64,000 bases of DNA. Origin: Deltaproteobacteria bacterium. GTDB lineage: Bacteria; Desulfobacterota; RBG-13-43-22. Below, one piece after another: positions 16,239 to 43,189 of this stretch (position 1 is its first letter; every line of letters starts with the position of its first letter). Where the stretch lies: NCBI GenBank assembly GCA_016219225.1, contig JACRBX010000202.1, positions 741-64,740 on the forward strand, read 5' to 3'. The notes below the pieces were generated by a model. The model made no database searches. It was not told the origin of the DNA and worked only from the letters and a program-made list of their open reading frames with translations. A program made the translations under genes and the position numbers.

Positions 16239-16246
16239 AAAATTGT

Positions 16247-28028: not shown

Positions 28029-28030
28029 TC

Positions 28031-28576
28031 ATGAACGAGCAGGAACGGGAAAAATGGTATGCTTTTGAGCATCAAAAATATGGCATCCCCATTGAATATC
28101 TGAAGCGGGAATTTGAAAAAGAGTTGTCAGGCCAAGTCCCTATGGACCAACCCCTGGAGATACCTGACAAGATGGAGGTCATCTATAAGTACAGTTACGG
28201 CCAACAATCCCGGTTTTTCAGGGAACTGCGGGAAAACAAGAAAATTTACGGGGCCAAATGCCCCCAATGCAGCAAGGTCTACTGCCCTCCCAGGGCCCAT
28301 TGTTCCCTGTGCTATCAGCCTACCGAATGGGTGCCTTTGACCGGGACCGGGGTGATCAAGACCTTTACGGTCCAGTATATCTCCACCAGTGCCTTTATTA
28401 AAAAAGTTCCCTTTGTCTGCGCCTATGTGCAATTAGATGGAACCGATTTTCTGCTCATGGCCAATATGGAAGTGGAAGATGTGGCCCGGATCAGGGTGGG
28501 GACAAAAGTCAAGGCCGTCTTTCGTGAAGAACGGCAGGGGACCATCACGGATTTTTATTTTGAACCGTACGAATAA
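28031..28576 (+). CDS. DUF35 protein (rubredoxin-like Zn ribbon plus OB-fold), partner of the thiolase-fold protein
   Basis: CPQCSKVYCPPRAHCSLC zinc ribbon. Size (about 180 aa) and thiolase-adjacent position match BbsA and the ChsH2-DUF35 domain. Confidence 0.8.
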   Translation: MNEQEREKWYAFEHQKYGIPIEYLKREFEKELSGQVPMDQPLEIPDKMEVIYKYSYGQQSRFFRELRENKKIYGAKCPQCSKVYCPPRAHCSLCYQPTEWVPLTGTGVIKTFTVQYISTSAFIKKVPFVCAYVQLDGTDFLLMANMEVEDVARIRVGTKVKAVFREERQGTITDFYFEPYE

Positions 28577-28581
28577 TTTTT

Positions 28582-28614
28582 TTGACAGGATTTACGGGAT
28601 TGACAGGATTGACA
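28582..28614 (+). promoter_or_regulatory. Tandem 9-bp direct repeats TTGACAGGA / TTTACGGGA / TTGACAGGA / TTGACAAAT, each containing a -35-like box. Possible direct-repeat regulator site or promoter upstream of the BKACE-ligase-MaoC genes.
   Basis: Seen directly. The same TTGACAGGAT word also occurs at 16247. Confidence 0.4.
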
Positions 28615-28646
28615 AATTCATAAAAAGTCCCTATGCGCGCATATTC

Positions 28647-28724
28647 GTCATTCCCGTGAAAACGGGAATCCAGTGCTTTTAAGCAGTCACGAGTTGACTG
28701 GATTCCCGCCTTCGCGGGAATGAC
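28647..28724. repeat. REP/BIME-like inverted pair (gtcATTCCCGTgaaaACGGGAATccag, a 24-nt spacer, then ctggATTCCCGCcttcGCGGGAATgac)
   Basis: Two 8-bp-stem hairpins in opposite orientation. Homologous to the elements at 9402, 43298 and 63886. Confidence 0.85.
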
Positions 28725-28838
28725 GAGTTTTTGCGAGTTAATCAGGATTGTATTTTCCCCTTTCTTGTCGAAGGGTAAAAAAATCCAATTAATCCCTTTT
28801 AAAAGTAATTTAATACACATCAATCGCGGAGGCCATAA

Positions 28839-29678
28839 ATGTCCCGGAAAGTCATCATCACCATTGCCCCCACAGGCAGTATACCGACCCGGAAAAACAA
28901 TCCCAATCTTCCGATTACGCCGGAAGAAGTGGCCGAAGAAGCGCGTCGCTCTTATGAGGCCGGGGCTGCCGTGGTGCACCTCCACGCCAGGAATCCCGAT
29001 ACCGGTGAACCCACGCCGGACATCGAGGTCTTCCGGGCCAATCTTGAGGCCATCCGGGCGGCCTGCCCGATCATTACCCAGATCACCTCGGGCGGCGGGG
29101 CAACCCGCTTGGGCCTCACACCGGAGGAGCGGTTGAAACCGGTCCTGGAACTCCAACCCGATTCGGCCTCTTTGAATGCCGGCTCCATGAATTTCGGCCG
29201 GAACCTCTTTCCCAATCTTCCGGAAGTCATGGAGCTATATGCCCGGAAGATGAAAGAGATCAAGGTCATGCCCGAGTTTGAAGTCTATGATCTGTCCATG
29301 ATTAATAATGTAGAGGTCTGGATCCGCCAGGGCGGGATATTGGAACCCCCCTATCAATTCAGTTTTGTCCTTGGGGTTTTGGGCGGGATTCCGGCCACCT
29401 TTAAAAATCTCCTGGCCCTGAAGGAAAGCCTGCCCGAGGGCTACACCTGGCAGGCTATCGGTATCGGCCGCCATCAGATCCCCATGGGGATTATGGCTGT
29501 CCTTATGGGGGGAAATTTCCGGGTCGGTTTTGAAGATAATGTTTACCTGTCCAAAGGGGTCCTGGCCAAAAGCAATGCCGAATTGGTGGAAAAGGCGGTG
29601 CGCATCATCCGGGAATTGGGGTATGAACCCGCTACGGTAGCAGAGGCCAGGGAGATATTGCCGCTGTTGAATAAATAA
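28839..29678 (+). CDS. Beta-keto acid cleavage enzyme (BKACE/DUF849, 3-keto-5-aminohexanoate cleavage enzyme family)
   Basis: VIITIAPTGSIPTRK N-terminus and a TIM-barrel family signature. GGAGG RBS. Confidence 0.85.
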   Translation: MSRKVIITIAPTGSIPTRKNNPNLPITPEEVAEEARRSYEAGAAVVHLHARNPDTGEPTPDIEVFRANLEAIRAACPIITQITSGGGATRLGLTPEERLKPVLELQPDSASLNAGSMNFGRNLFPNLPEVMELYARKMKEIKVMPEFEVYDLSMINNVEVWIRQGGILEPPYQFSFVLGVLGGIPATFKNLLALKESLPEGYTWQAIGIGRHQIPMGIMAVLMGGNFRVGFEDNVYLSKGVLAKSNAELVEKAVRIIRELGYEPATVAEAREILPLLNK

Positions 29679-29727
29679 AAAATATGAGGAAAAGGAGAAT
29701 TTCGATATTCATATTTGGAGGAATCTT

Positions 29728-31263
29728 ATGGAAATGACTCTCGGTGAGGCATTTGCCCGTTCGGCCCGAAAATTTCCGGACAAAACGGCCTGTATGGATG
29801 ATGAAAAAAGTATCACCTATGGCCGGATGAATGAACGGGTTAATCGCTGGGCCCAGGCGGCTATTGGATTGGGTTTGGAAAAGGGCCGTCATGTAGCCAC
29901 CTTGGCCAATAATTGTCTGGCTTTAATGGAAGTCTATCTGGGAAATCTAAAATGCGGCCTGGTCACCGTACCTATCGACGCCCGGGCCACTTTGCAGGAT
30001 AAGTGTTATCAGGCCGAATTCACCGACAACGACGTCCTGATCTTTCACTCTGATTTTTCCGGTACGGTAGAAGAAATACGCAGTCGGCTTCCACAGATAA
30101 AAACCTTTGTCTGTCTGGGCGGGAATTGCCCTTCTTTTGCCCTGGATTACGAAAAGCTGCTTCGGCAAAGCCAGGATAAAGAAACGGAAATCCCTCTGGT
30201 GGAAGAAGACGAAGCCTTTATCCTGTTCACAGGAGGGACCACCGGCCGTTCCAAAGGGGCGATACTGACCCATAAGAATTTACTCTGGAATATCATTTGT
30301 GTGACCACTGAAAATCAAAGCCCCACCCCGGAAGATAGTGTCTATTATCCCATGCAGATGTACCACACGGCGGCCTTAAGCCGTTTTCTGGCCTACATGT
30401 ATGCCGGCGGGACCTTCATCGGCAGCAAAACCTTTAACCCGGATACTTATCTGGATGTGGTGGAAAAAGAACGGACCACCTTTATCGTCGGCAATCCCAC
30501 CATCTTCAGGATGCTCCTGGAGGCCAATATCAAACGTCCCCGGGACACGTCTTCCATGAAGCGCTGGTTTTGCTCTCAAGGTTTTTTGCATCCGGATTTA
30601 AAAGAAGATATCCAAAAATATCTCTGGCCCAACGGCGAGCTGTACGGCTCTTATGCCTTGACCGAGGCCTCGCCGGCAGTGACCGTTTTAAAACCTACGG
30701 ACAGACCCCGTCAATGGGGGAGTGTCGGCCGCCCTTATATGTGCACCGAGGTGCGTATCGTGGATGAGTCTGATCAGGACAGGCCTGTTGGAGAAGAGGG
30801 GGAAATTATCGTCCGCGGGCCCACGGTTTTCAAAGGGTATTACAAAAACCCCGAAGAAACCGCCCGGACCTTAAGGGGGGGCTGGCTGCACACCGGGGAT
30901 GTGGGCCGATACGATGACCTGGGTTTTCTCTATATGGTCGACCGGATCAAGGACATGATCAAGACCGGGGGGATTAATGTCTTTTGCAGTGAAATAGAAG
31001 AGGTCCTTTCCCGCCATCCGGATATCTCCGAAGGGGTGGTCATCGGGGTCCCCCATGTCAAATGGGGAGAATCCATCCGGGCCATCGTGGTCCCTAAAAA
31101 AGGGGCGGAGTTGTCGGAAGCGGCAGTCATCGAACACTGCCGCTGCCATCTGGCCAGTCATAAGAAGCCCACCTCGGTCATCTTTTTGGAGGAACTGCCC
31201 AAAGGGACCTTTGGCGGCAAGGTTTTGAAAAGAATTTTACGGGAGCAATACGGAAAGGAATAG
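29728..31263 (+). CDS. AMP-dependent acyl-CoA synthetase/ligase
   Basis: FTGGTTGRSKGA AMP-binding motif and a GWLHTGD motif. Confidence 0.9.
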   Translation: MEMTLGEAFARSARKFPDKTACMDDEKSITYGRMNERVNRWAQAAIGLGLEKGRHVATLANNCLALMEVYLGNLKCGLVTVPIDARATLQDKCYQAEFTDNDVLIFHSDFSGTVEEIRSRLPQIKTFVCLGGNCPSFALDYEKLLRQSQDKETEIPLVEEDEAFILFTGGTTGRSKGAILTHKNLLWNIICVTTENQSPTPEDSVYYPMQMYHTAALSRFLAYMYAGGTFIGSKTFNPDTYLDVVEKERTTFIVGNPTIFRMLLEANIKRPRDTSSMKRWFCSQGFLHPDLKEDIQKYLWPNGELYGSYALTEASPAVTVLKPTDRPRQWGSVGRPYMCTEVRIVDESDQDRPVGEEGEIIVRGPTVFKGYYKNPEETARTLRGGWLHTGDVGRYDDLGFLYMVDRIKDMIKTGGINVFCSEIEEVLSRHPDISEGVVIGVPHVKWGESIRAIVVPKKGAELSEAAVIEHCRCHLASHKKPTSVIFLEELPKGTFGGKVLKRILREQYGKE

Positions 31264-31271
31264 ATTTTTTT

Positions 31272-31724
31272 ATGGCCCCCCATTATTTTGACGATTTCTA
31301 TCTTGGCCAGGAATTCATTACTAAGAGCCGGACGGTGACTGAAACCGATATAGTCAATTTCGCCGCCCTGTCCTGGGATACCAACCAACTGCATACCGAT
31401 GCCGAATTCGCCAAAACGACCCCTTTCGGCGAGCGGATTGCCCACGGCATGCTGGGCCTGGTGATCCATACCGGACTGTCCCAGATGCTGGGGATCATGG
31501 AAGGAACCGTCATTGCCTTTCTGGGCCTGACCTGGAATTTTCTCCTGCCCGTCCGCATCGGGGATACCATCCATGTGGTCCAGCGGGTCAAGGAACTGCG
31601 GGAGACTTCCAATCCGGAGCGGGGGATCCTGGTCCTTGAAAAGGAAGTGGTCAATCAAAAGGGAGAGACCGTTCAGAAAGGGACGACCACTACCCTGATG
31701 GCCAGGCAGAAAAGAGGCCAATAA
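31272..31724 (+). CDS. MaoC-like (R)-specific enoyl-CoA hydratase/dehydratase (hotdog fold)
   Basis: 150 aa with a hotdog core DTNQLHTDAEFAKTTPFGERIAHGML. Confidence 0.85.
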   Translation: MAPHYFDDFYLGQEFITKSRTVTETDIVNFAALSWDTNQLHTDAEFAKTTPFGERIAHGMLGLVIHTGLSQMLGIMEGTVIAFLGLTWNFLLPVRIGDTIHVVQRVKELRETSNPERGILVLEKEVVNQKGETVQKGTTTTLMARQKRGQ

Positions 31725-31728
31725 ATTT

Positions 31729-31800
31729 ATGAAGATCCTCTTCGGCAAGCCCATCGCCTCTTTTCAACTGGTCCAGAATCTGCTGGCCGAGATGTCTAAT
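31729..31800 (+). pseudogene. Remnant of an acyl-CoA dehydrogenase gene (about 24 codons of the C-terminal domain)
   Basis: Translation ILFGKPIASFQLVQNLLAEMSN matches the conserved R..FGKPIG.FQ...LAEM ACAD motif. No N-terminal domains are present. A shorter trace of the same sequence lies at 38333..38356. Confidence 0.45.
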
Positions 31801-31802
31801 AG

Positions 31803-31821
31803 GTCAGGCATCTTGCCTGAC
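31803..31821. promoter_or_regulatory. Palindrome GTCAGGCA-tct-TGCCTGAC within a duplicated about 70-bp junction element directly upstream of the CoA-transferase start codon
   Basis: Second copy (GTCAGGCA-tcc-TGCCTGAC) at 38375..38393. Both are embedded in homologous flanks (atgtctaa...aaaaATGgg). Dimeric TF site or hairpin. Confidence 0.45.
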
Positions 31822-31849
31822 AATAGATTGAAATTAAAAAGGACGAAAA

Positions 31850-33046
31850 ATGGGTCACTACAGTAACAGCGGACCGCTCAGCGGAATAAAAATTCTGGAT
31901 TTTTCCAGCCTTCTGCCCGGTCCTTTTGCAACATTATATCTGGCCGATATGGGGGCCACGGTTTTGCGGGTCGGTTCAGGCACCAGGCCGGACCCTATAG
32001 AGACCAGAACACCTTTTATTCCTGAGACTGAAATTTCAGCGCTCTGGGCCTACCTGGCACGGGGTAAGCAGTCGATCAATCTAAACCTTAAAAATCCCAA
32101 GGCCGTCAGGATTGTTGAACAGTTGATCGCCGAATATGATGTGGTCATCGAACAATTTCGACCGGGTGTGATGGGCAAACTGAGATTGGATTATGAAAGC
32201 CTGAAAAAAATTAATCCGGCCGTCATCTATTGCTCGCTAACCGGCTATGGACAGACCGGTCCCTTAAGAAAAAGGGCCGGTCATGACATTAACTATCTTT
32301 CTCTGGCTGGACTTCCGGCTTATTCAGGGAAAAAAGAAAGCGGTCCGTCTCTGACGGGTATGCAGATTGCCGATATCGCTTCCGGTTCACTCCATTCGGT
32401 TATCGGTATTCTGGCGGCCGTCATCCATAGAAAGGAAACCGGGGAAGGACAATATATAGACCTAGCCATGATGGATGGGGTGATGGCCTTTAATATTGCA
32501 TCCGGGGTTTCTTGCCTGGTGGACGGGACAGAGCCGGTCCGGGAAAGGGAACGGCTGAACGGGGGGACCCTTTATGATTTTTATGAAACCAAAGACGGGG
32601 AATATATGAGTCTTGGTGCCCTGGAACCCCAGTTCTTTAAAGCCTTTTGTGAAGCCATCGGGCGTCCGGATCTTATATCTGGCGGCATTGCTCCCAAAAA
32701 TATTGAAACGGTCAAGGCTGAAGTTCGCGCCATTTTTAAATCAAAAACGAGGGATGAATGGAGAGAAATTTTCAGGGACTTCGATGCCTGTGTGGAGCCG
32801 GTGCTCGGTCTTTCGGAAGCCTTAAACAGCGCCCAGGCCAAAGAACGTCAGATGGTCATCGATATAGAACTGCCGGAGGGTGGCAAGGTCAGGCAGCTGG
32901 CTAACCCGATTAAGTTTTCTCATGCCCCTAAAGAATACACCTCTATAGGGGTTCCTTCGGGGACACACACCAAAGAGATTATCGGCGGATTAAGCTATTC
33001 GGAGGAGGAGTATAAAAGGATGGAGCAAGAAGGGGTCTTTAGTTAA
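31850..33046 (+). CDS. Family III CoA-transferase
   Basis: GIKILDFSSLLPGPFATLYLADMGATVLRV motif. Directly followed by a second family III gene, so possibly a BbsEF-like heterodimer. Confidence 0.9.
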   Translation: MGHYSNSGPLSGIKILDFSSLLPGPFATLYLADMGATVLRVGSGTRPDPIETRTPFIPETEISALWAYLARGKQSINLNLKNPKAVRIVEQLIAEYDVVIEQFRPGVMGKLRLDYESLKKINPAVIYCSLTGYGQTGPLRKRAGHDINYLSLAGLPAYSGKKESGPSLTGMQIADIASGSLHSVIGILAAVIHRKETGEGQYIDLAMMDGVMAFNIASGVSCLVDGTEPVRERERLNGGTLYDFYETKDGEYMSLGALEPQFFKAFCEAIGRPDLISGGIAPKNIETVKAEVRAIFKSKTRDEWREIFRDFDACVEPVLGLSEALNSAQAKERQMVIDIELPEGGKVRQLANPIKFSHAPKEYTSIGVPSGTHTKEIIGGLSYSEEEYKRMEQEGVFS

Positions 33047-34204
33047 ATGAGTAGAGCGCTTGAAGGGATCAAGGTTTTGGATCTGGGAAGCTATATCGCC
33101 GGCCCCTATTGTTGTATGCTTTTGGCGGATCATGGGGCCGAGGTCATCCGGGTGGAGCCGCCGATGGGTAAGGTGGATCGTGAACTGGGCCCCTATTCGC
33201 CGGACGGCCAGCCCATGTCCTTCGGTTTGACGATACAGCGAAACAAGAAAAATATCACCTTAAACTTAAAGTCCGAAGCGGGAAAGCGACTTTTAGAGGA
33301 ATTGGTTAAAAAGGCCGATATCCTGGTGCACAATTCTCCTAAAGGATCGGAAGAGGCCCGGGTCCTCGAATATGAGCGTTTGAGCAGGATCAATCCGGCT
33401 TTGATCGTTGTGGCCATATCCGGCTTCGGGCAGAACGGCCCTTATGCGGAGCGGCCTTGCTTTGATGCCATTGCCCAGGCCATGTCCGGTTCCATGCCCT
33501 TCACCGGATATCCGGGATTGCCGCCCCTCAGGGCCGCCCTCCCTTATATCGATTTCAATACAGCGGCCCGGGCCGCTTTCGGGGCTATGATGGCCTATGT
33601 GGAGCGTCAGACGAGCGGCCGGGGGCAGCTTGTCGACATTGCCCTCTTTGACGTGGCCTTCTCCATAGTGGGCTCCGTGGGGTGTGCGGCCGAATACCTG
33701 CTCCTGGGTGAATTGCGAAAACAAGTCGGTAATGGGGGGTTCTATGCCTATTGCTGCAGTGCCTCGGCAAAAGACGGCTACCTGATGATCAATATCGTCG
33801 GCAATAGTATGTGGCGGCGCATGTGCCGGGTCCTGGGTCGGGAGGATCTGGCTAAAGATCCGCGCTTTAAAGATAATCTGCAACGCTACCGGAACTATGA
33901 GGCCATTGATCCGATCCTGGGGGATTGGATCAGAGATAAAACGATAGCCGAAGCCATGCGAATACTGGATGAAGCCGGTATCCCCTGCGGTCCGGTCAAT
34001 GATGTCTCCCGGACCCTGGAGGTGCCGCAAATTAAGGCCCGGGAAATGCTGATCGAACTCGACTATCCCGTCACCGGAAAAATTCCGGTTCCAGGGGTGG
34101 ATATCAAACTATCGAGAACACCGGGCCGGGTGGCTAAACGGGCATCTTTGTTGGGAGAAGACAATGAATCCATTTACTGCTGGCTTCTCGGCTATGAACC
34201 GTAA
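33047..34204 (+). CDS. Family III CoA-transferase (paralog of 465..1667)
   Basis: GIKVLDLGSYIAGPYCCMLLADHGAEVIRVE motif. Its start codon abuts the upstream stop codon. Confidence 0.9.
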   Translation: MSRALEGIKVLDLGSYIAGPYCCMLLADHGAEVIRVEPPMGKVDRELGPYSPDGQPMSFGLTIQRNKKNITLNLKSEAGKRLLEELVKKADILVHNSPKGSEEARVLEYERLSRINPALIVVAISGFGQNGPYAERPCFDAIAQAMSGSMPFTGYPGLPPLRAALPYIDFNTAARAAFGAMMAYVERQTSGRGQLVDIALFDVAFSIVGSVGCAAEYLLLGELRKQVGNGGFYAYCCSASAKDGYLMINIVGNSMWRRMCRVLGREDLAKDPRFKDNLQRYRNYEAIDPILGDWIRDKTIAEAMRILDEAGIPCGPVNDVSRTLEVPQIKAREMLIELDYPVTGKIPVPGVDIKLSRTPGRVAKRASLLGEDNESIYCWLLGYEP

Positions 34205-34350
34205 GATCTGATACGATTGAAGGAAGAAAAGGCAATTTGAAGGGCAGCACCTTTGAAATTCATGAATTCAGGAGTCAGAAGCCAAAATTCAGAATGAGGA
34301 TCAATTCTTAAGAATCGACATTCATTACAGATATGGAGGGAAAAACAATG

Positions 34351-35805
34351 ACAGGAATCGTGTCTTATGGAGGCTATGTGCCTCGTTACCGGCTGGATCG
34401 TCGGAAGATATTTCAGGCTATGGGCTGGATGGACCCTTCGACCGCTTCGAATATGAGAGGCGAAAAGGCGGTAGCCAATTTTGATGAAGACAGCATCACC
34501 ATGGCCGTTGCCGCGGGAATAGACAGCCTCTGCGGGATGGACAGGTCGAAGGTGGATGGACTCTATTTCGCCTCGACCACCATGCCCTATAAGGAGCGGC
34601 TCAATGCCGGCATTTGCACGGCGGCTTTAGGACTCAAAGATCAAGTACGGGCCGCGGATTTCGGCGGCGGGCTGAAAGCCGGGACAACGGCGCTGCTGGC
34701 CGCCCTGGAAAGTGTCGCGGCCGGCGGTGCCAATACCATTATGGTTTGTGCTTCCGATTCCCGAATGGGAAGGCCGGCCTCCGGGGAAGAGATGATCTTT
34801 GGCGACGCTGCCGCAGGATTTATCGTCGGGAATGGAGAGGTGATCGCCGAATTCAAGGGCTCCTATTCGATCACCTATGATTTCGGCGATCACTACCGCG
34901 GGGCCTTTGCGAGGTTCGATCGGAAGTGGGAAGACCGATGGATTCGGGATCTGGGTTATGATCATTTTTTACCTGAGGTAATCAAGGGGTTCCTTTCCAA
35001 ATACGGCCTGAAGATCCAGGATTTTGCCAAGGTCATCTACGACTGCCATTATGGGGCGGAGCGTAAAAAACTCAATAAGATGCTGGGGATTACCGCCGAG
35101 ATGGATCAGGGGAATTACCAGGAACAGATCGGCCACTGCGGAGCGGCCCAAAGTCTGGTTATGCTGGCCGGTGCCCTGGAAGGGGCCAGGCCGGGAGACC
35201 GGCTGTTAGTGGTGAGCTTCGGCAGCGGCTGTGATGCCCTTTGTTTTGAGGTCACTGAAAACATCCTGAACAAAAAAAGCGGCCGCGGTATTTCGGGTTC
35301 CCTGGCCAACCGGGCGGAATTGGATGTTTATGAAAAATACCTGGTCTGGCGGGATATCCTGCCGGCGGAGATGGGGCTTCGGAGTGAGGAGGATCTCTGG
35401 ACCAGATGGACCGCTTTGTGGCGCAAGCGTAAAGAGGTCCTGGGACTCTGGGGCTCCCGGTGTTTAAAATGCGGGACTCCCCAATTACCGGCCCAGAAAA
35501 TCTGTGTTAATCCCGAGTGTGGGGCCGTCGACCAGATGGAAGAATATCTCTTTTCCGATAAGAAAGGACAGGTAGTCAGTTTTACCGGAGACATGCTGGC
35601 CGCTTCCTACAATCCTCCGGCCATCTACGGGGCCGTGGAATTCGAAGGGGGGGGCAAGTATTATTTTGACTTTGTCGATTGCACCCTGGCGGAAATGGCC
35701 ACCGGCCTGCCGGTGACCTTCAGTTTCAGAAGAAAATATTATGATAAGAAACGGGACATTTCCGGGTACTTCTGGAAGGCGGTCCCGGTAAAGGAGGACA
35801 AATAA
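34351..35805 (+). CDS. HMGCS/FabH-fold protein fused to C-terminal DUF35. The nucleophilic Cys is apparently absent.
   Basis: Homolog of 18038..19486 (FASTTMPYKERLN, FGDAAAGFIVG). Zn ribbon CLKCGTPQLPAQKICVNPECG. Start at ATG 34351 with a GGAGGG RBS. The track start 34333 is also possible. Confidence 0.8.
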   Translation, partial: TGIVSYGGYVPRYRLDRRKIFQAMGWMDPSTASNMRGEKAVANFDEDSITMAVAAGIDSLCGMDRSKVDGLYFASTTMPYKERLNAGICTAALGLKDQVRAADFGGGLKAGTTALLAALESVAAGGANTIMVCASDSRMGRPASGEEMIFGDAAAGFIVGNGEVIAEFKGSYSITYDFGDHYRGAFARFDRKWEDRWIRDLGYDHFLPEVIKGFLSKYGLKIQDFAKVIYDCHYGAERKKLNKMLGITAEMDQGNYQEQIGHCGAAQSLVMLAGALEGARPGDRLLVVSFGSGCDALCFEVTENILNKKSGRGISGSLANRAELDVYEKYLVWRDILPAEMGLRSEEDLWTRWTALWRKRKEVLGLWGSRCLKCGTPQLPAQKICVNPECGAVDQMEEYLFSDKKGQVVSFTGDMLAASYNPPAIYGAVEFEGGGKYYFDFVDCTLAEMATGLPVTFSFRRKYYDKKRDISGYFWKAVPVKEDK

Positions 35806-35806
35806 A

Positions 35807-37012
35807 ATGGCAAGTGGAATCAAAGATAAGGTGGCCATTCTGGGCATGGGCTGTTCCCGCTTCGGGGAGCGTTGGGAAAGCGGTGCCGAGGATTTGATGG
35901 TTGAGGCCTTTACGGAATGTCTGGCCGATGCCGGTATAGAAAAGAAAGAGATCCAGGCGGCCTATTTGGGGACCCATTTTGACGAGGTCAACGTGGGCAA
36001 GGCGTCCTTGCCTTTGTCCCTGGCCTTGAAACTGCCCTTTGTCCCCGCCACCAGGGTTGAAAATTTTTGTGCCACGGCCACGGAGGCCTTGAGGGCCGCA
36101 TCCTATGCCGTGGCCGCCGGAGCCTATGATATTGTCCTGGCCCTGGGGGTGGAGAAGCTGAAGGACACGGGCTACGGCGGTCTGCCCGGCGGGGCCGGCC
36201 GGGGCGTTAATGCCCGCATGGAAGCGGCCAACATGACCGCCCCGGGGATGTTTGCCCAATTGGCCACGGCCTACAGCGCCAAGTGGGGTATCTCCATGGA
36301 GAAAATCAAGGATGCCATTACCCATGTGTCGGTGAAGAGCCATGCCAATGGGGCCATGAATCCCAAGGCCCATTTAAGGAATGTGATCACCGAAGAACAG
36401 GCCAAGAAGGCCCCCATGATCGCCTATCCCCTGGGACTTTTTGATTGCTGCGGGGTGAGCGACGGATCGGCGGCCGCCATAGTGACCACTCCGGAGATCG
36501 CCAGAAGTTTGAAGAGGAATCAGGATATCGTCTTTATCAAGGCCATTCAGGTGGTCTGCAGTTCCGGAGAGGAGGAGATGTTCACGAAATGGGACGGGTC
36601 CCATTTCGCCACCACCCGGCGGGCGGCCACCATGGCTTATAACGAAGCAGGAATAAAAGACCCCAGGCAGGAAATCAGCATGATGGAGGTCCATGATTGT
36701 TTCTCCATCACGGAAATGGTCACCATGGAAGACCTGCACATCTCCCCCAAGGGAGGGGCCTATGAAGATATTATGAGCGGGTTTTTCGATCTGAAGGGCC
36801 AGGTGCCCTGCCAGGTGGATGGCGGCTTGAAATGTTTCGGCCATCCCATTGGGGCCTCGGGACTCCGGATGGTCTATGCCATGTATGAACAATTGCTGGA
36901 CCGGGTTCCTGAAGAGCGGAAGGTTAAAAATGCCCGATTAGGCCTGACCCATAATTTGGGGGGCTTCCCCTGGAAAAACGTGGCGGCCATTTCGATTGTC
37001 GGAAGGGGGTGA
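35807..37012 (+). CDS. SCP-x/archaeal-type thiolase (Cys present in NFCATA)
   Basis: VAILGMGCSRFGE N-terminus, a GHPIGASGLRM motif and an AAGGAGG RBS. Starts 1 nt after the upstream stop. Confidence 0.85.
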   Translation: MASGIKDKVAILGMGCSRFGERWESGAEDLMVEAFTECLADAGIEKKEIQAAYLGTHFDEVNVGKASLPLSLALKLPFVPATRVENFCATATEALRAASYAVAAGAYDIVLALGVEKLKDTGYGGLPGGAGRGVNARMEAANMTAPGMFAQLATAYSAKWGISMEKIKDAITHVSVKSHANGAMNPKAHLRNVITEEQAKKAPMIAYPLGLFDCCGVSDGSAAAIVTTPEIARSLKRNQDIVFIKAIQVVCSSGEEEMFTKWDGSHFATTRRAATMAYNEAGIKDPRQEISMMEVHDCFSITEMVTMEDLHISPKGGAYEDIMSGFFDLKGQVPCQVDGGLKCFGHPIGASGLRMVYAMYEQLLDRVPEERKVKNARLGLTHNLGGFPWKNVAAISIVGRG

Positions 37013-37027
37013 GGAGGACTGATTAAA

Positions 37028-38167
37028 ATGGAAAGAGGACTGTTTCAGGAAGAACATTTAATTTTTCGCGAGGCCTTCAGAAAATTCCTGGATAAGGAAA
37101 TCGCCCCCTATTATGAACAATGGGAAGAAGACGGGATTGTTCCCAAAGCGGTTTGGCACAAGACCGGCGAAAACGGCTATCTCTGTCCCTGGGTGGCCGA
37201 AGAGTATGGAGGGGCCGGTGCCGGGTTGGAATATTCCATTATTATGGCCGAGGAAATGAGCCGAAGGGATTATGTCGGATTCGCCCACTCCCTGCACAGC
37301 AATGTTATTGTACCCTATATTGATACCTACGGCAATGAGGATCAAAAAAGAAGATGGCTGCCAGGCTGTGTCAGCGGTGAGATCATCACGGCCATTGCCA
37401 TGACCGAGCCTAATGCCGGGTCCGATCTGGCGGCCATCCGAACAACGGCCAAAAGAGACGGAGAGGACTATATCCTCAACGGCCAAAAGACCTTCATTTC
37501 CAATGGCCTCAATTCAAACCTGGTTATTGTGGCCGCCAAGACCGATCCGGCGGCCGGTTACAAGGGGATCAGTCTTATTGGTGTCGAAGAGGGCGCCTCC
37601 GGTTTTTCCAGGGGGAGAAAACTGAATAAAATGGGTATGCACAGCCAGGATACGGCCGAGCTGATTTTCGAGGAGTGCCGCGTCCCGGTGGCGAACCTTT
37701 TAGGGGAAGAAGGCAAAGGGTTCCGCTATCTGATGGAAAAACTGCAGCGGGAGAGGCTTTTCTCGGTAACCGGATCTCAGGCCATGGCCGAGGCCATGCT
37801 GGCCCTGACCATTCAGTATTGTAAAGAGCGGGAGATTTTCGGCAAACCGGTCGGGTCGTTCCAGCACAACACCTTCAAGCTGGTCGAAATGGCCACGGAG
37901 ATCGAACTGGGCCGAACCTTTGTTGATGCCTTGATCAAGGAACACATCGCCGGTATCGACATTACCAAAAAGGTTTGCATGGCCAAGTCCTGGGTGGCCG
38001 AGATGGCCAACCGGGTGGCCTACAACTGCCTCCAACTCTTTGGTGGATACGGTTATATGGAGGAATATCCCATCTGCCGCTTTGCCAGGGATGTGCGGGT
38101 CCAAACCATTTATGCCGGTTCTACGGAGGTGATGAAATCGGTGGTGGGGAAGATGCTGGGGTTTTAA
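37028..38167 (+). CDS. Acyl-CoA dehydrogenase
   Basis: ACAD domains with a REIFGKPVGSFQ motif. GAGGAGG RBS. Confidence 0.9.
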   Translation: MERGLFQEEHLIFREAFRKFLDKEIAPYYEQWEEDGIVPKAVWHKTGENGYLCPWVAEEYGGAGAGLEYSIIMAEEMSRRDYVGFAHSLHSNVIVPYIDTYGNEDQKRRWLPGCVSGEIITAIAMTEPNAGSDLAAIRTTAKRDGEDYILNGQKTFISNGLNSNLVIVAAKTDPAAGYKGISLIGVEEGASGFSRGRKLNKMGMHSQDTAELIFEECRVPVANLLGEEGKGFRYLMEKLQRERLFSVTGSQAMAEAMLALTIQYCKEREIFGKPVGSFQHNTFKLVEMATEIELGRTFVDALIKEHIAGIDITKKVCMAKSWVAEMANRVAYNCLQLFGGYGYMEEYPICRFARDVRVQTIYAGSTEVMKSVVGKMLGF

Positions 38168-38263: not shown

Positions 38264-38374
38264 CTTACTGCGGAAAGAAAAAGCAGAGGAGAGGCACGAG
38301 GCGAGGGGAAACAAGGAGTGGGGGAGTACCCTCTTAATGAGCTTCTTGCAAATGTCTAAGCTCGGAAAAAATAG

Positions 38375-38393
38375 GTCAGGCATCCTGCCTGAC
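38375..38393. promoter_or_regulatory. Second copy of the palindrome GTCAGGCA-N3-TGCCTGAC within the duplicated junction element upstream of the SBP gene
   Basis: See 31803..31821. The flanks share atgtctaa and aaaaATGgg. Confidence 0.45.
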
Positions 38394-38432
38394 TAAAGAT
38401 CATTAAAAATGGGAAAGACAAGGAGAGGGATC

Positions 38433-39575
38433 ATGAAAAGAACAGCAGCAATTATTTTTATGTTAACCATGTTTTTCATCTTCCAGGGGCCGGTATTTGC
38501 TCAGGAGATCAACATCGGTTATACCGGTCCGCTGACCGGGCGGGCAGCGGCCATTGGAATTGACGCCTTACATGGTGCACTGATCGCCGCTAAGGAAATC
38601 AACGACGCCGGCGGGGTGGAGGTGGCCGGGAAGAAGTATAAGGTGAATATCCAGAGCTATGATGATGAAGGGGTGGCCGCCAAGGCCGTAGCCGGGATGC
38701 AACGCCTGAAAGATAAATATGAGGTTCCTGTTATTATTCAAAATATCAGTGGATCCGTTATGGCCATGCTGGAAAGAAATGAAAAGATGGGTGTCCTGCT
38801 GATCGGTTTTTTCAAAATTCCTGAGGCGACCAAGAAGGGAAACAAACTGGTCCTTCGGCATCAACAGACCATTGATGAAGATGCCATAGGGCTGGCCCGG
38901 GAGGCCGTGAAAATTTTAAAGGCCAAAAGTTATGCCATGATCTCCGATACGGGTGATTATGGGAAATCCTCAGTCAAGGCCTACCAGGGGGCCTTTGAAA
39001 AGCTGGGGGTCAAAATGGCTGCCAACGAGTGGCTGGACCAGCGTACTCAGACCGATTTCCGGGGGCAACTGACCAAGATCAAGGCCGCCAACCCGGACGT
39101 GATCTTGCTTACGGCTTATGACGAGGCCTCGGCCGGGGTGATCAAACAGGCCCATGAATTGGGGATCAAGACGCCTTTTGTCGTTTCCACGGGCTTTGCG
39201 GCTGCGGGTGAGAAACTCACCGGTCCTGATTTGATCGAAGGATTTTTAAGACGGGTCGAGTATACTAATATGATTCCTCCACCTGCTGCGGTGGCCCGTT
39301 ATCGGACCCAATTGTACCCGGCCATGGGCTATAAGGAACCGGCAGCCGGCTTTGGTGTGAATTGCTACGCCAGTGTCCACATCATCCTCCAGGCCATGCA
39401 AAAGGCAGGAACGACTACGGACGCCCTTAAGATCCGGCAGGCTGTTCCATTGGTGTTGCCCCTTGATGATAAACATAATACGACCGGTCTGAAAACCTTC
39501 AAGGAAGATGGTGAAGGGGCGATTACCGCCAAGATCGGGAGGTATCAGAAGGGGAAACTGGTGCCGGTTAATTAG
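38433..39575 (+). CDS. ABC transporter substrate-binding protein, LivK/type-I PBP family (paralog of the orphan SBP at 11922)
   Basis: Signal peptide followed by QEINIGYTGPLTGRAAAIG. AAGGAGAGGG RBS before ATG 38433. An in-frame ATG at 38409 lies inside the duplicated element. Confidence 0.85.
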   Translation: MKRTAAIIFMLTMFFIFQGPVFAQEINIGYTGPLTGRAAAIGIDALHGALIAAKEINDAGGVEVAGKKYKVNIQSYDDEGVAAKAVAGMQRLKDKYEVPVIIQNISGSVMAMLERNEKMGVLLIGFFKIPEATKKGNKLVLRHQQTIDEDAIGLAREAVKILKAKSYAMISDTGDYGKSSVKAYQGAFEKLGVKMAANEWLDQRTQTDFRGQLTKIKAANPDVILLTAYDEASAGVIKQAHELGIKTPFVVSTGFAAAGEKLTGPDLIEGFLRRVEYTNMIPPPAAVARYRTQLYPAMGYKEPAAGFGVNCYASVHIILQAMQKAGTTTDALKIRQAVPLVLPLDDKHNTTGLKTFKEDGEGAITAKIGRYQKGKLVPVN

Positions 39576-39645
39576 AGAAAAAAAGTTTCAAGTTTCAAGA
39601 TGCAAGTCAAGACACCATTTTCAAACTGGTATAGGGGTATGAGCG

Positions 39646-40506
39646 ATGGCTGAATTTCTGCAGTATATGGTCAACGGTTTGATTGCCGGCAGCGCTTATG
39701 GTCTTCTGGCCCTGGCCATGACCCTGATCTATGGGATTCTCGCAATCCCCAATTTTGCCCTGGGGGCCATCTATGCGATGGGGGCCTTTATCTCCTTTTA
39801 TGTCATCCAGTGGATGGGACCGGGGTACTATCTGGGGAGCCTCCTGCCGGTGGTGATACTGGCCGGATTGATCGGGGTGATCAGCGAAAGGGTTGTTTTC
39901 CGGCCCCTCCATAATGCCCCCCATGCCGCCGGGTTTATCGGGGCCTTGGGGCTTTACTCCATTCTGGAGGGGGGCTGGAATGTCTGGTTCGGCCCGGATT
40001 GGCGGAGTATCGCCTCTCCGTATAATGACATCATCATCCGGTTGGGTCCGGTCTCCCTGACCCTGCAGCGGTTGATCCTTTTCGGGGTCTGCCTGCTGTT
40101 CGCCCTGGGGACCTACCTGCTGGTTTTTCGGACCCTGACCGGCAAACAGATCCGGGCCTTTTCTGAAAACAAGGATGTAGCCCGGCTGCTGGGGGTCAAT
40201 ACCAACCGCATGTCCTATCTGACTTTTATTATCGGTTACGGCCTGACCGGGATAGGCGGGGCGCTGGTGGCGCCCACGGCCCTGGTGGGATCGAGCATGG
40301 GATTGACGCCGATCATCAAGTCCTTCATCGTGGTGGCCCTGGGGGGACTGGGCAGCGTCACCGGGGCCATAATAGGGGGGCTTATTTTGGGGCTGGGGGA
40401 GAATTTCGGGGCCGCCTATATCAGCTCCATGTATAAGGATCTTTTTTCCTTTGCCCTTTTCCTGGGGGTGCTGCTTTGGATGCCCCAGGGGTTATACCGG
40501 CGATAA
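39646..40506 (+). CDS. ABC transporter permease, LivH-like
   Basis: Polytopic protein with a C-terminal LGLGENFGAAY signature. Confidence 0.9.
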   Translation: MAEFLQYMVNGLIAGSAYGLLALAMTLIYGILAIPNFALGAIYAMGAFISFYVIQWMGPGYYLGSLLPVVILAGLIGVISERVVFRPLHNAPHAAGFIGALGLYSILEGGWNVWFGPDWRSIASPYNDIIIRLGPVSLTLQRLILFGVCLLFALGTYLLVFRTLTGKQIRAFSENKDVARLLGVNTNRMSYLTFIIGYGLTGIGGALVAPTALVGSSMGLTPIIKSFIVVALGGLGSVTGAIIGGLILGLGENFGAAYISSMYKDLFSFALFLGVLLWMPQGLYRR

Positions 40507-40544
40507 CTGAACCGGCCCTTTGGGGGCGACACGAAGAATGAAAA

Positions 40545-40669
40545 AATCGAATATCGAATAATGAATATCGAATGTCGAATGTCGAAGGAAGGCAAAGACC
40601 AATCACTTCATTATTCACAATTTCGAATTAAGCCCTCATGCCCCAGGGGCGCCACGGAGCATGAAAATG
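40545..40669. repeat. Family D unit (aatcgaatatcgaataatgaatatcgaatgtcgaatgtcgaagg), a partial inverted copy (cttcattattcacaatttcgaatt), then a family E hairpin unit (agccctcatgccccaggggcgccacggagcatgaaaatg)
   Basis: Seen directly. Overlaps the first 9 codons of the track ORF starting at 40661, which argues for the later start at 40760. Confidence 0.75.
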
Positions 40670-40759
40670 ACCCGTAAGGGCGGGTTTAAAACCCGCTCCT
40701 ACAGAGCTTCTTTGGAAGTGGGTTTTTTAAATTCCGCAATCCGAAATGGGAAGAGATCT

Positions 40760-41710
40760 ATGCGCAAATTGATTTATCTGTTATTGGGACTTCTGGTAAT
40801 TCTGTTACCGTTTCTGATCCGGTCGAATTACTGGATGTACATGTTCACCCTGGTGGGCATTTACATCATCCTGGTGGCCAGCCTGGATTTGATCTATGGT
40901 TACAGCGGACTGGTCTCTCTGGGCCACGGGGCCTTTTTCGGCCTGGGGGCCTATGCCTGCGGTATTCTGCAGGTCAAATTGGGGCTATCCTTTTTACCGG
41001 CCCTGATTTTGGGAACCCTGTTTACCTGTTTTTCTTCGGCGATCATGGGCTGGCCCATGTTGCGGATCAAGGGGCCTTATTTTGCCCTGGGCACGCTGGC
41101 CCTGGGACTCATGGTGACTATTGTCATTCATAACTGGGACAGTCTGACCGGGGGGGTGAGCCTGTCGGGGATTCCGCTCCCACCGGAGATCCATCTTATG
41201 GGCTGGACCGTGGATTTTTCCTCGAAGCGGACCTATTATTATCTGGTCCTGCTTTTTGTGTTCCTGACCATTTTTCTGATCCGTCGCCTGACCCGTTCCC
41301 GTCCGGGCCGGGCCTTTCAATCCATCCGGGAAAACGAGGACCTGGCCGAAGCGCTGGGGGTGCACATCCTGCGTTACAAGCTCATTGTTTACGTCATCGC
41401 CAGCACCATGGCGGCTTTTGCCGGAGGGCTCTATGCCTGTTACATGGGTTCCATCGAGCCGGAGATCGCCGGGGGGCACATGTCGTTCAATCTGCTGGTC
41501 ATGATCGTCGTGGGCGGGGCGCGGACTGTGACCGGAGAGATCGTCGGACCGTTGCTGCTCTGGTTTCTGCCTGAATTTCTGGAAGCGGCCCAGGTTTACC
41601 GGCCGTTGTTTTATGGATTGATTTTGCTGATCGTCATTCTTTTAATGCCCATGGGGATTGCCGGAAAGCTGCGATCCCTGCATCCGAGGATAGCCCAATG
41701 GATACCGTGA
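40760..41710 (+). CDS. ABC transporter permease, LivM-like
   Basis: Hydrophobic protein. Start moved to ATG 40760 (MRKLIYLLL) with a GGGAAGAG RBS. The upstream extension is repeat-derived. Confidence 0.85.
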   Translation: MRKLIYLLLGLLVILLPFLIRSNYWMYMFTLVGIYIILVASLDLIYGYSGLVSLGHGAFFGLGAYACGILQVKLGLSFLPALILGTLFTCFSSAIMGWPMLRIKGPYFALGTLALGLMVTIVIHNWDSLTGGVSLSGIPLPPEIHLMGWTVDFSSKRTYYYLVLLFVFLTIFLIRRLTRSRPGRAFQSIRENEDLAEALGVHILRYKLIVYVIASTMAAFAGGLYACYMGSIEPEIAGGHMSFNLLVMIVVGGARTVTGEIVGPLLLWFLPEFLEAAQVYRPLFYGLILLIVILLMPMGIAGKLRSLHPRIAQWIP

Positions 41711-42507
41711 GACCTGAAAATGGAGCCCCCTATCTGAAGGGGGATAAGATATCCGTATCATTTGGAAGGCTGGTGGCTGTTTATGATCTGGAGTTCCAGA
41801 TACAGACCGGGGAGATCTTCGGCCTTATCGGCCCCAACGGGGCAGGGAAGACGACGGTCTTTAATGCCGTTACCGGCTCGGTTCCCTTAAGCAGCGGGAA
41901 GATCCGTTTTGACGGCCGGGATATCAGCGGCTTGAAGCCCCATCAGATCACCGAACAGGGGATTGTGCGGGTTTTTCAAGCGGCGACGATTTTTCCGGGG
42001 TTACCGGTCCGGGACCACGTAATGACCGGTCTCCACTGCCGGACCGCGACTTCGGTTTTTGGGGCCCTCTGGCGAAGCCCCTTCAGCCGGAAAGAGGAGG
42101 ATCAGAGCCGGCAGCGGGTGGAGGCCCTGCTGAATTTTACCCATCTGGCCGAGTTTCAGGAGCAGCCGGCTGCCAATCTGACCTGGGCCCAGCAGAAGCG
42201 CTTAATGCTGGCTACGGCCCTGGCCAGCAACCCGAGACTGATTTTATTAGACGAGCCGGTAGCCGGCATGAACGCCGACGAGATCCAGGAAATGATCGAT
42301 TTGATCGCAACGGTGAGAAAAGATGGGATTACCGTTTTTATCATCGACCATAATATGAGGGTCATGATGGGGATCTGTGACCGCCTTTTAGTCATGAATT
42401 ACGGACAGAAACTGACCGAAGGGGTTCCGGCAGAAGTGTCCCGGGACCCCCGGGTCATCGAAGCCTATCTGGGGTATAAAAAAGATGATACAACTGAAAA
42501 ACATTGA
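41698..42507 (+). CDS. ABC transporter ATP-binding protein, LivG-like
   Basis: GPNGAGKTT and an LLDEP signature. Confidence 0.9.
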   Translation: MDTVRPENGAPYLKGDKISVSFGRLVAVYDLEFQIQTGEIFGLIGPNGAGKTTVFNAVTGSVPLSSGKIRFDGRDISGLKPHQITEQGIVRVFQAATIFPGLPVRDHVMTGLHCRTATSVFGALWRSPFSRKEEDQSRQRVEALLNFTHLAEFQEQPAANLTWAQQKRLMLATALASNPRLILLDEPVAGMNADEIQEMIDLIATVRKDGITVFIIDHNMRVMMGICDRLLVMNYGQKLTEGVPAEVSRDPRVIEAYLGYKKDDTTEKH

Positions 42508-43189
42508 ACTTTTTTATGGTAAGTCGCAGGCCTTGCACGGGGTATCCCTTTCGGTTGGTCCCGGTGAAATCGTGGCCCTGATCGGGGCCAACGGGGCCGG
42601 GAAAACGACGGTGCTGAAGGCCATATCGGGGTTGATTCCCTGGACCTCGGGGGAGATCCTCTTTCAGGGCAAATCGCTGAAAGGTTTGACGCCGGAGACG
42701 ATAGCCCAAAAGGGGATTTCCCATGTCCCGGAAAGGGGGGGCATCTTCGGTAAGATGACTGTTCTGGAAAACCTGGAATTAGGGACTGTAGCACAGAAGA
42801 ACCGGCAAGACCTGAAAGAAAGATTTGAAAAGGTCTTCCGGCTTTTTCCGATATTGGAGCAGAGAAAAGGCCAATTAGGCGGGCAACTGAGCGGAGGGGA
42901 GAGGCAGATGCTGGCCATCGGGCGGGCCATGATGAGCAATCCGGCCTTGTACCTTCTGGACGAGCCGACCCTGGGCTTAAGTCCCCGCATGGTCGGAGAG
43001 ATCGCCGCTATCGTCCAGGAGATCAGCCAGCAGGGGGGGACTATTCTTCTGGTGGAGCAAAATGCCCTGATGGCCCTGGAACTGGCCGGGCGGGGCTATG
43101 TCCTGGAAATCGGCCGCATCTTTCATGAAGGACCCAGCCGGGAATTGATGGAGGATGAGCAGGTCAAAAAGGCCTATCTGGGGATTTGA
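42485..43189 (+). CDS. ABC transporter ATP-binding protein, LivF-like
   Basis: GANGAGKTT and an LSGGERQMLAIGRAM signature. Confidence 0.9.
   Translation: MIQLKNIELFYGKSQALHGVSLSVGPGEIVALIGANGAGKTTVLKAISGLIPWTSGEILFQGKSLKGLTPETIAQKGISHVPERGGIFGKMTVLENLELGTVAQKNRQDLKERFEKVFRLFPILEQRKGQLGGQLSGGERQMLAIGRAMMSNPALYLLDEPTLGLSPRMVGEIAAIVQEISQQGGTILLVEQNALMALELAGRGYVLEIGRIFHEGPSRELMEDEQVKKAYLGI

Follow-up and report, generated by a model that had tools for sequence, protein, structure and literature searches.

Two adjacent genes in a 64,000-nucleotide stretch of DNA from a Deltaproteobacteria bacterium (contig JACRBX010000202.1, henceforth the window) probably encode a two-gene thiolase complex that would carry out the thiolytic last step of a catabolic pathway of the beta-oxidation type. 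The first gene, FUS_1, specifies a catalytically dead 3-hydroxy-3-methylglutaryl-CoA (HMG-CoA) synthase fused to a DUF35 domain, and the second, THL_1, a thiolase with intact catalytic motifs. This type of enzyme has been known since January 2026, and the locus described here suggests its use. The pair is a fixed two-gene unit that recurs in 80 related loci among genes for acyl-CoA dehydrogenases (ACADs), MaoC hydratases, short-chain dehydrogenases/reductases (SDRs), racemase-like proteins, ligases and transporters. Its testable role, we suggest, would be that of the thiolase when anaerobes degrade acids, possibly methyl-branched ones, by MFE-2-style beta-oxidation.

34348..35805, + strand, FUS_1: pseudo-HMG-CoA synthase (residues ~1-335), linker, and DUF35 zinc-ribbon/OB-fold domain (~357-485); 485 aa
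35807..37012, + strand, THL_1: archaeal/SCP2-type thiolase, 401 aa, predicted catalytic subunit

FUS_1 has a synthase fold without its catalytic residues

An initial annotation of this DNA had described a Cys-less HMG-CoA synthase (HMGCS)-like/DUF35 fusion followed by a thiolase. This architecture was borne out, as a 485-residue protein with PhlA/HMGCS-like and DUF35 parts precedes a 401-residue thiolase of the SCP2/archaeal type. The FUS_1 start had been placed at 34351, which is codon 2. The true ATG is at 34348, where the sequence GGAGGG (34337-34342) lies 5 nt upstream, and the homologues are likewise 485 residues long. The stop codon of FUS_1 and the start of THL_1 are separated by 1 nt, and the AAGGAGG of THL_1 sits within the 3' end of FUS_1.

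The two parts of FUS_1 were compared with the Protein Data Bank (PDB) using phmmer. Residues 2-335 matched the PhlA-type entry 9skh best (1e-34), followed by the archaeal HMGCS 6esq_I (1e-31) and the PhlA-type 5m3k (3e-30). Residues 356-482 matched 6esq_E, the DUF35 subunit of the archaeal thiolase/HMGCS/DUF35 complex (4e-13), and the Pfam matches in FUS_1 include zf-ChsH2, a ChsH2-type zinc ribbon. An AlphaFold2 model built from 85 sequences had a pLDDT of 85.7 and a pTM of 0.89, and its N-terminal domain was superimposed by Foldseek on 6esq_I with a TM-score of 0.90 and a root-mean-square deviation of 2.3 Å.

The catalytic tetrad of the synthase was examined in an alignment of 240 database homologues and both paralogues from the window (n = 242), with the archaeal enzyme as the reference. 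The archaeal residues Glu82, Cys114, His238 and Asn270 correspond to T76, L108, D231 and H262 in FUS_1. Across the family, the first column is Thr in 240 of the 242 sequences, the second is Leu, Ile or Met, the third is Asp or Pro and the fourth is variable; the E-C-H-N tetrad is lost in every one of the 242 members. The four cysteines of the zinc ribbon (C371, C374, C385 and C390 in FUS_1), on the other hand, are kept across the family. The description of the domain as Cys-less was correct but understated, as not only is the nucleophile replaced by Leu but all four catalytic residues are gone. Since the synthase is catalytically dead, HMG-CoA cannot be made by FUS_1 and a role in the mevalonate pathway is excluded. 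The label "hydroxymethylglutaryl-CoA synthase" routinely given to such genes needs correction, as it would point falsely to that pathway. FUS_1 is instead predicted to be a non-catalytic partner, or scaffold, of THL_1.

Two ideas that would have given the fold a catalytic function were rejected. A new Cys-His site, C232-H233, lies beside the position of the old catalytic His; of 79 orthologues, 76 have C232, but position 233 may be H, Y, N or V, and both residues are absent from the paralogous group. Operation of the synthase in reverse, in which the cleavage of HMG-CoA would be pulled by thiolysis, was discarded, as in all 242 sequences the tetrad is gone, nucleophile included.

THL_1 retains the motifs of an active thiolase

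The best PDB matches of THL_1 are the archaeal acetoacetyl-CoA thiolases 7yvy (1e-51) and 6esq_A (1e-49), with BbsB (7pxp_C) weaker at 7e-36. THL_1 passes the NCBIfam equivalog PRK06157, "acetyl-CoA acetyltransferase" (658 bits, cut-off 403), and is far below the cut-off of the BbsB equivalog (129 bits against 750). Its catalytic motifs, Cys88, HDCF (His296) and GHP (345), are intact, and the same motifs are present in all 74 of the 74 fusion-adjacent thiolases of the related loci.

The pair is a fixed unit in catabolic neighborhoods

Homologues of FUS_1 are abundant, with more than 4360 matches at E < 1e-10 and the top 120 at 68-94% identity. The 80 related loci were obtained from a scan of species-representative genomes. 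Their carriers are found in Thermodesulfobacteriota (including Desulfatibacillum alkenivorans and Desulfosarcina alkanivorans), Dehalococcoidia and Actinomycetota, and the order of fusion and then thiolase is invariant wherever the contig continues. Neighbors at a distance of up to 6 kb were counted in those 35 non-duplicate loci whose flanks both extend for at least 4 kb. ACADs were the most frequent (69%), followed by MaoC hydratases (46%), SDRs (46%), acyl-CoA ligases (37%), crotonases of the enoyl-CoA hydratase (ECH) family (26%), family III proteins (23%) and 3-hydroxyacyl-CoA dehydrogenases of the 3HCDH type (20%). At least one beta-oxidation gene (ACAD, MaoC, SDR, ECH or 3HCDH) stands beside the pair in 29 of the 35 loci, and a complete dehydrogenase-hydratase-dehydrogenase set is found in 14. 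Genes of the PrpD/MmgE type occur nearby in several related loci and FabK/NMO-like genes in a few.

The initial annotation had likened the locus to the bbs operon for the beta-oxidation of arylsuccinates or alkylsuccinates. The general part of this comparison stands, as the DUF35-linked thiolase is always adjacent to its partner and lies in a beta-oxidation-like catabolic string in 29 of 35 loci, but the specific parallel to bbs does not, as discussed below.

Two of the related loci have additional features. The cultured alkane degrader D. alkanivorans PL12 (locus L024, 10001-21452) contains two fusion-thiolase modules back to back, 68% and 27% identical to FUS_1, accompanied by paired ACADs and an SDR. 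A double-hotdog MaoC and a family III gene of the racemase-like kind (GHDLNF, EPKF) are also there. In the Desulfobacterales metagenome-assembled genome (MAG) bin589 (L002/L014), genes for an APH-type kinase fold and a DUF6285 protein (14563-15973) follow the fusion-thiolase-SDR-MaoC set, and a 2-hydroxyacyl-CoA dehydratase-like (HGD-D) gene lies upstream.

A conserved block surrounds the pair

Two loci, both from uncultured MAGs, are closest to this one: L003 (Thermodesulfobacteriota) at 98% protein identity and L004 (deltaproteobacterial) at 95%. Both share a collinear block equivalent to 26832-38167 of the window. The order in this block is a thiolase-like protein, its DUF35 partner, a beta-keto-acid cleavage enzyme (BKACE), an acyl-CoA ligase, MaoC and an ACAD, followed by family III proteins a and b, the fusion, the thiolase and a second ACAD. 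The genes of the window that belong to this block or adjoin it, apart from the pair itself, are as follows.

26832-28028, + strand: thiolase-like protein without the nucleophile Cys, in the upstream part of the block
Probably 28031-28576, + strand: DUF35 partner of the 26832 thiolase-like protein, with a CPQC...CSLC ribbon
28839-29678, + strand: BKACE, within the conserved block
29728..31263, + strand: AMP-forming acyl-CoA ligase (Pfam AMP-binding, 3e-74), position kept in L003 and L004
31272..31724, + strand: MaoC-type (R)-specific enoyl-CoA hydratase (Pfam MaoC_dehydratas, 1e-23)
31741..31798, + strand: ACAD relic of 58 bp
31850..33046, + strand: CoAT3_a, family III fold, predicted alpha-methylacyl-CoA racemase/epimerase rather than transferase
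33047..34204, + strand: CoAT3_b, family III CoA-transferase of the dicarboxylate type, like succinate-hydroxymethylglutarate CoA-transferase (SUGCT); Pfam CoA_transf_3, 1e-110
37028..38167, + strand: ACAD_1, ACAD of the subgroup resembling long-chain acyl-CoA dehydrogenase (LCAD), with Pfam ACAD N, M and C domains
38409..43189, + strand: ATP-binding cassette (ABC) uptake system with a Peripla_BP_6 binding protein, two BPD_transp_2 permeases and two ATPases

The locus had been described as a compact string of six genes that all abut or overlap. The string is in fact longer, since the whole of 26832-38167 is one conserved co-directional block in the close relatives, and it contains gaps of 143 nt (34204 to 34348) and 125 nt (31724 to 31850). 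A hydratase and an alcohol dehydrogenase had also been reported as lacking. The statement on the hydratase is wrong because the product of the same-strand MaoC gene carries the hydratase-2 Asp/His motif WDTNQLH; this gene occupies the same position in L003 and L004. That on the alcohol dehydrogenase, of which there is none window-wide, is right. The downstream ACAD_1 is closest to a Geobacillus ACAD (2pg0, 6e-145), and among named enzymes to human LCAD (8w0t, 2e-103). The ABC genes are not at the corresponding place in L004. A palindrome upstream of FUS_1 (34293-34326) is only half conserved in L003.

The ACAD at position 6 of the block was deleted from this genome and a 58-bp piece was left. 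This piece reads FGKPIASFQLVQNLLAEM and matches L003 6981-7038 at 100% identity. The match falls inside an ACAD gene that is intact in the relatives (L003 6159-7313; L004 7523-8677), between their MaoC and racemase genes. Next to the relic is one copy of a 24-nt repeat, AATAGGTCAGGCATCYTGCCTGAC, which occurs exactly twice in the window (31798-31821 and 38370-38393), with none expected by chance. It holds a perfect 8-bp palindrome, GTCAGGCA N3 TGCCTGAC. Copy 1 follows the relic and is 29 nt before the racemase-like start, and copy 2 is 16 nt before the start of the ABC binding protein, such that the two bracket the five-gene block 31850-38167. Neither L003 nor L004 has the repeat, which might serve as an operator, form an RNA hairpin or be left over as a recombination scar.

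In L003 and L004 the upstream part of the block, 26832..29678, has a collinear counterpart with 96% and 86% nucleotide identity, respectively, and the trio of thiolase-like, DUF35 and BKACE genes is retained in both. The thiolase-like protein is most similar to the archaeal ACAT 7yvy (7e-63), with Gly in place of the nucleophile Cys (NSGGATG) and HDAF and GHA kept. The trio may be an Ltp2/Sal-like retro-aldolase or another unit for non-thiolytic C-C cleavage, and cleavage of this kind could account for the lack of an alcohol dehydrogenase. An intergenic element of ~100 nt at 28636-28735, between the genes for DUF35 and BKACE, is built of inverted copies of CGTCATTCCCG(N6)CGGGAATCCAG and resembles repetitive extragenic palindromes or miniature inverted-repeat transposable elements; another copy (43294-43376) lies between the ABC ATPase gene and the next ligase gene.

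One of the two family III proteins resembles a racemase

The initial annotation had placed a pair of CoA-transferases upstream of the fusion and an ACAD downstream. Two Pfam CoA_transf_3 genes (31850 and 33047) and the ACAD (37028) are indeed present, but the product of the first looks racemase-like. CoAT3_a and CoAT3_b are only 28% identical. The best PDB matches of CoAT3_a are the Mycobacterium tuberculosis alpha-methylacyl-CoA racemases Far (2g04, 6e-57) and MCR (1x74, 4.5e-55), although its margin over a SUGCT-type transferase is modest (6e-57 against 1e-51). The GHDINY motif, an Asp and the EPQF motif of CoAT3_a align with His126/Asp127, Asp156 and Glu241 of MCR (M. tuberculosis numbering), and the active-site roles of His126, Asp156 and Glu241 have been described (PMC10967716). 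Among the six family III proteins of the window, only CoAT3_a has these racemase motifs. We predict from these matches and motifs that CoAT3_a is an alpha-methylacyl-CoA racemase rather than a CoA-transferase. Racemase-like genes are found near the fusion and thiolase in eight other loci (L001/L006, which is one locus, L003, L004, L024, L048, L055, L056 and L058).

CoAT3_b, on the other hand, matches human SUGCT best (9br7, 3e-59). It is conserved in the catalytic Asp column but does not have the His of the racemases, and L004, a close relative, lacks the gene altogether. The BbsEF transferase (9fn0 A and B) matches CoAT3_a and CoAT3_b at 1e-29 to 1e-37, the values for CoAT3_b being 4e-37 and 1e-29; these are well below the best matches of the two proteins, 6e-57 and 3e-59.

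A paralogous module lies in the same window

The same architecture had been noted at 18038..20666. The comparison agrees with this: the two fusions are 38% and the two thiolases 50% identical. The fusion of this module, FUS_2, defines a second large group of the family. In three orthologues of this second group, a thiolase again comes after the fusion, and the neighbors are transporters, ligases, 3HCDH and ACADs. The module and the genes upstream of it are as follows.

13291-14778: GcdA/MmdA-like carboxyltransferase (615 bits, below cut-off)
15075-16238: non-decarboxylating glutaryl-CoA dehydrogenase (passes the NCBIfam Acd model, 479 bits against 470)
16358-17134: crotonase, upstream of the paralogous module
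18038..20666, + strand: FUS_2 and THL_2, paralogous module of the same architecture, genes overlapping by 8 nt

The three genes at 13291-17134 correspond to the route from glutaryl-CoA to crotonyl-CoA known from Desulfococcus-type anaerobes. Given these neighbors, it is plausible that FUS_2/THL_2 is an acetoacetyl-CoA thiolase.

Proposed role and alternative explanations

We propose that THL_1 would perform the chemistry of the complex. Cys88 would attack C3 of a 3-oxoacyl-CoA with the assistance of His296 (HDCF) and His346 (GHP), and the acyl-enzyme would be resolved by CoA to yield acetyl- or propionyl-CoA and a shortened acyl-CoA. The pseudo-enzyme FUS_1 would stabilize THL_1 and help shape its CoA site; in the archaeal, Phl and Bbs complexes the DUF35 module clamps onto the thiolase. 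In the steps before thiolysis, an organic acid would be imported by the adjacent ABC system and activated by a ligase or the SUGCT-like transferase. The MCR-like protein may then epimerize it at C2, the LCAD-like ACAD dehydrogenate it and MaoC hydrate the product; the gene for the 3-hydroxyacyl-CoA dehydrogenase would be located elsewhere. An alpha-methyl-branched or otherwise alpha-substituted acid as the substrate, an assignment that we regard as tentative, is hinted at by the combination of a racemase-like gene with an SCP2-type thiolase, an (R)-hydratase of the MaoC type and an LCAD-like ACAD. The recurrence of racemase-like genes near the pair in other loci and the PrpD/MmgE genes of several loci also speak for it.

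A complex with the same motif pattern is known from Pseudomonas fluorescens (Nat Commun, January 2026), in which a fused HMGS-DUF35 without the E-C-H-N tetrad is paired with an ACAT that has the Cys, HDxF and GHx motifs (PMC12960953). In vitro, this complex cleaves acetoacetyl-CoA and does not condense acetyl-CoA, and a mutant in the HDxF His is nearly inactive. The same study counted 1001 bacterial HMGS/ACAT/DUF35 loci without secondary-metabolism neighbors and termed the complex an evolutionary intermediate, with its pathway role left open by the authors (PMC12960953). The initial annotation had regarded biosynthetic action of the closest characterized homologues as evidence against a catabolic module. 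The closest solved homologues (PhlA and the archaeal HMGCS and thiolase) do act in biosynthesis, but the architecture-matched P. fluorescens complex performs only thiolysis (PMC12960953), and the catabolic reading survives for this reason.

Besides these biosynthetic homologues, several observations weigh against a catabolic thiolase complex. The 64-kb window has no gene for a 3-hydroxyacyl-CoA dehydrogenase, be it an SDR or a 3HCDH, so that the cycle as encoded here is incomplete. The NCBIfam name of THL_1 is acetyl-CoA acetyltransferase, and the sole tested relative, that of P. fluorescens, was assayed on acetoacetyl-CoA alone (PMC12960953). Identity across phyla is 58-98% for FUS_1 against 62-98% for the thiolase, which is more conservation than a pure scaffold might need. 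Scans for sigma-70 promoters, intrinsic terminators and sigma-54 promoters over 26-44 kb returned counts at or below the shuffled expectation and were uninformative on transcript structure; co-transcription can therefore only be presumed. Our literature search found no report on the biochemistry or expression of this locus or of any Thermodesulfobacteriota orthologue. As for the branched substrate in particular, MCR Asn152 is not conserved in CoAT3_a, and racemase-like genes accompany a minority of the loci. Separately, a search for the role of the fused complex in sulfate reducers, or together with racemases, found nothing relevant.

A more far-reaching idea is that the dead HMGS-DUF35 protein, far from being a vestige, serves as a platform on which a bacterial beta-oxidation metabolon assembles. 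The thiolase would be held on it together with the SDR and MaoC of the neighborhood, in a catabolic counterpart of the DUF35-mediated archaeal fatty acid synthase, and bulky or alpha-branched 3-oxoacyl-CoA would be channeled in energy-limited anaerobes. It is motivated by the archaeal thiolase/DUF35 pair that docks an SDR and a MaoC protein (bioRxiv 10.1101/2024.07.05.601840). Such a metabolon is speculative and rather unlikely; if it existed, it would provide a physiological role for the ~1000 "orphan" bacterial HMGS/ACAT/DUF35 loci.

The main alternative on the substrate is that the pair is a plain acetoacetyl-CoA thiolase in a branch of the ketone-body type. BKACE (28839) would make acetoacetate from a beta-keto acid and acetyl-CoA, the transferase or ligase would activate it, and the pair would produce two acetyl-CoA. 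The P. fluorescens relative cleaves precisely this substrate (PMC12960953), THL_1 passes the acetyl-CoA acetyltransferase equivalog, BKACE is in the same conserved block, and the paralogous module follows a set of glutaryl-CoA to crotonyl-CoA genes whose end product needs an acetoacetyl-CoA thiolase. However, BKACE stands beside the pair in this lineage only (1 of the 35 usable loci), and the commonest neighbors, one or two ACADs with MaoC and SDR, point to longer or bulkier substrates. A racemase-like gene has no role in C4 metabolism, and SUGCT-like family III enzymes are not known to activate acetoacetate. We consider a dedicated C4 thiolase unlikely on balance. A bbs-like module appears very unlikely. 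It would consist of a BbsEF-type succinyl-CoA:substituted-succinate transferase, a BbsG-like ACAD and FUS_1/THL_1 as BbsAB, which would cleave 2-(carboxymethyl)-3-oxoacyl-CoA to an acyl-CoA and succinyl-CoA in the degradation of arylsuccinates or alkylsuccinates formed by anaerobic hydrocarbon activation. The protein families do agree with bbs at the Pfam level, BbsB and BbsEF are detectable as homologues, and orthologues are present in the alkane degraders D. alkenivorans and D. alkanivorans; an MCR-like epimerase has been proposed for the processing of (1-methylalkyl)succinyl-CoA. Against this, THL_1 fails the BbsB model, the BbsEF matches of the family III proteins fall short of those to MCR and SUGCT by 20 to 30 orders of magnitude, and these two proteins share little identity, with CoAT3_b dispensable in L004. 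The hydratase is of the MaoC type and not the crotonase-type BbsH, and neither a BbsCD-like SDR nor a glycyl-radical synthase nor a B12 mutase is encoded in the window. In Dehalococcoidia and Actinomycetota, which also have the family, the neighbors are generic beta-oxidation genes.

The complex might also work in the opposite direction, condensing acyl-CoAs and feeding SDR and MaoC for CoA-dependent chain elongation. This would be in line with its biosynthetic solved homologues, with the frequency of SDR and MaoC genes among the neighbors, and with the FabK/NMO-like genes of a few loci. In Sulfolobus acidocaldarius, moreover, a ketothiolase/DUF35 pair, an SDR reductase and a MaoC dehydratase form a fatty acid synthase (FAS) complex (bioRxiv 10.1101/2024.07.05.601840). 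We nevertheless find synthesis highly improbable. The P. fluorescens complex made neither acetoacetyl-CoA nor HMG-CoA from acetyl-CoA (PMC12960953), no exergonic partner reaction is left because the HMGS tetrad is lost, and the neighbors are ACADs, uptake transporters and CoA ligases rather than NADPH enoyl-CoA reductases. Thiolysis in a catabolic pathway is the reading that we favor.

Other features of the window

The window is 51% G+C and nearly all of its genes are on the + strand. An island of acyl-CoA metabolism spans 50 kb of it, with six family III CoA-transferase-fold genes, five AMP-forming ligases, four ACADs and three thiolases, in addition to several ABC uptake systems of the Peripla_BP_6 type and two GntR/FCD regulators. 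Genes for uptake and activation are thus present, and both fusion/thiolase modules adjoin ABC uptake genes and ligases. Two fused modules and a third, Cys-less thiolase/DUF35 pair are found within one acyl-CoA catabolic island. At its distal end (46982-49284), the gene for a PaaK-like (phenylacetate-CoA-ligase-type) adenylating enzyme precedes that for a protein with an LplA-B lipoate/biotin ligase catalytic domain, an unusual pairing. The 64-kb window contains no polyketide synthase (PKS) or nonribosomal peptide synthetase (NRPS) genes, and a scan of all of it with Rfam returned no family. Antisense open reading frames over 31-38 kb had no Pfam matches and were taken as spurious.

Comparison with known systems

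In described architecture and motifs, the closest counterpart is the P. fluorescens ACAT/HMGS-DUF35 complex, which shares the HMGS-DUF35 fusion, the loss of the tetrad, the Cys, HDxF and GHx motifs of the ACAT and the absence of PKS/NRPS neighbors. It differs in that the host here is an anaerobic member of Thermodesulfobacteriota and that the pair lies in conserved catabolic contexts. The archaeal thiolase/HMGCS/DUF35 complex (6esq) has all three folds, supplies the best or near-best matches and likewise keeps HDxF, but the synthase here is dead, lacking the Glu, Cys, His and Asn of a competent enzyme, and is fused to DUF35.

The Friedel-Crafts C-acetyltransferases PhlACB and MucABC (5m3k, 9skh and 9vbo) resemble the pair in their tripartite organization and in the tetrad-less HMGS subunit, the PhlA type being the top match of FUS_1 (1e-34). 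In contrast, DUF35 is fused here, no polyketide genes are nearby and THL_1 keeps HDCF, whereas PhlC and MucB lost the HDxF motif (PMC12960953). As HDxF is retained, THL_1 is not a Phl-type acylase. BbsAB and the bbs operon (7pxp and 9fn0) share an SCP2-type thiolase dependent on a zinc-ribbon/OB (DUF35) partner and the family III and ACAD neighbors. Unlike the locus studied here, Bbs has no HMGS-fold subunit; here the BbsB model is failed, the family III proteins are MCR- and SUGCT-like, the hydratase is MaoC and there is no BbsCD.

For the beta-oxidation of alpha-methyl-branched acids, represented by the peroxisomal AMACR/branched-chain oxidase/MFE-2/SCPx pathway and by mycobacterial MCR with the cholesterol side-chain enzymes, the enzyme classes match. 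Both have a family III racemase and an LCAD-like ACAD for bulky substrates, as well as a MaoC hydratase with (R) specificity and a thiolase of the SCP2 type. In contrast to those pathways, the window does not encode the (R)-3-hydroxyacyl-CoA dehydrogenase, and an HMGS-DUF35 partner replaces the SCP2 domain. The DUF35-mediated FAS of S. acidocaldarius (bioRxiv 10.1101/2024.07.05.601840) combines a thiolase/DUF35 core with a docked SDR and MaoC protein, and such partners cluster with the fusion and thiolase in ~46% of the loci. That system, however, is devoted to synthesis with an NADPH enoyl-CoA reductase and has no HMGS-like domain, while the ACADs and uptake genes at the present locus point to degradation.

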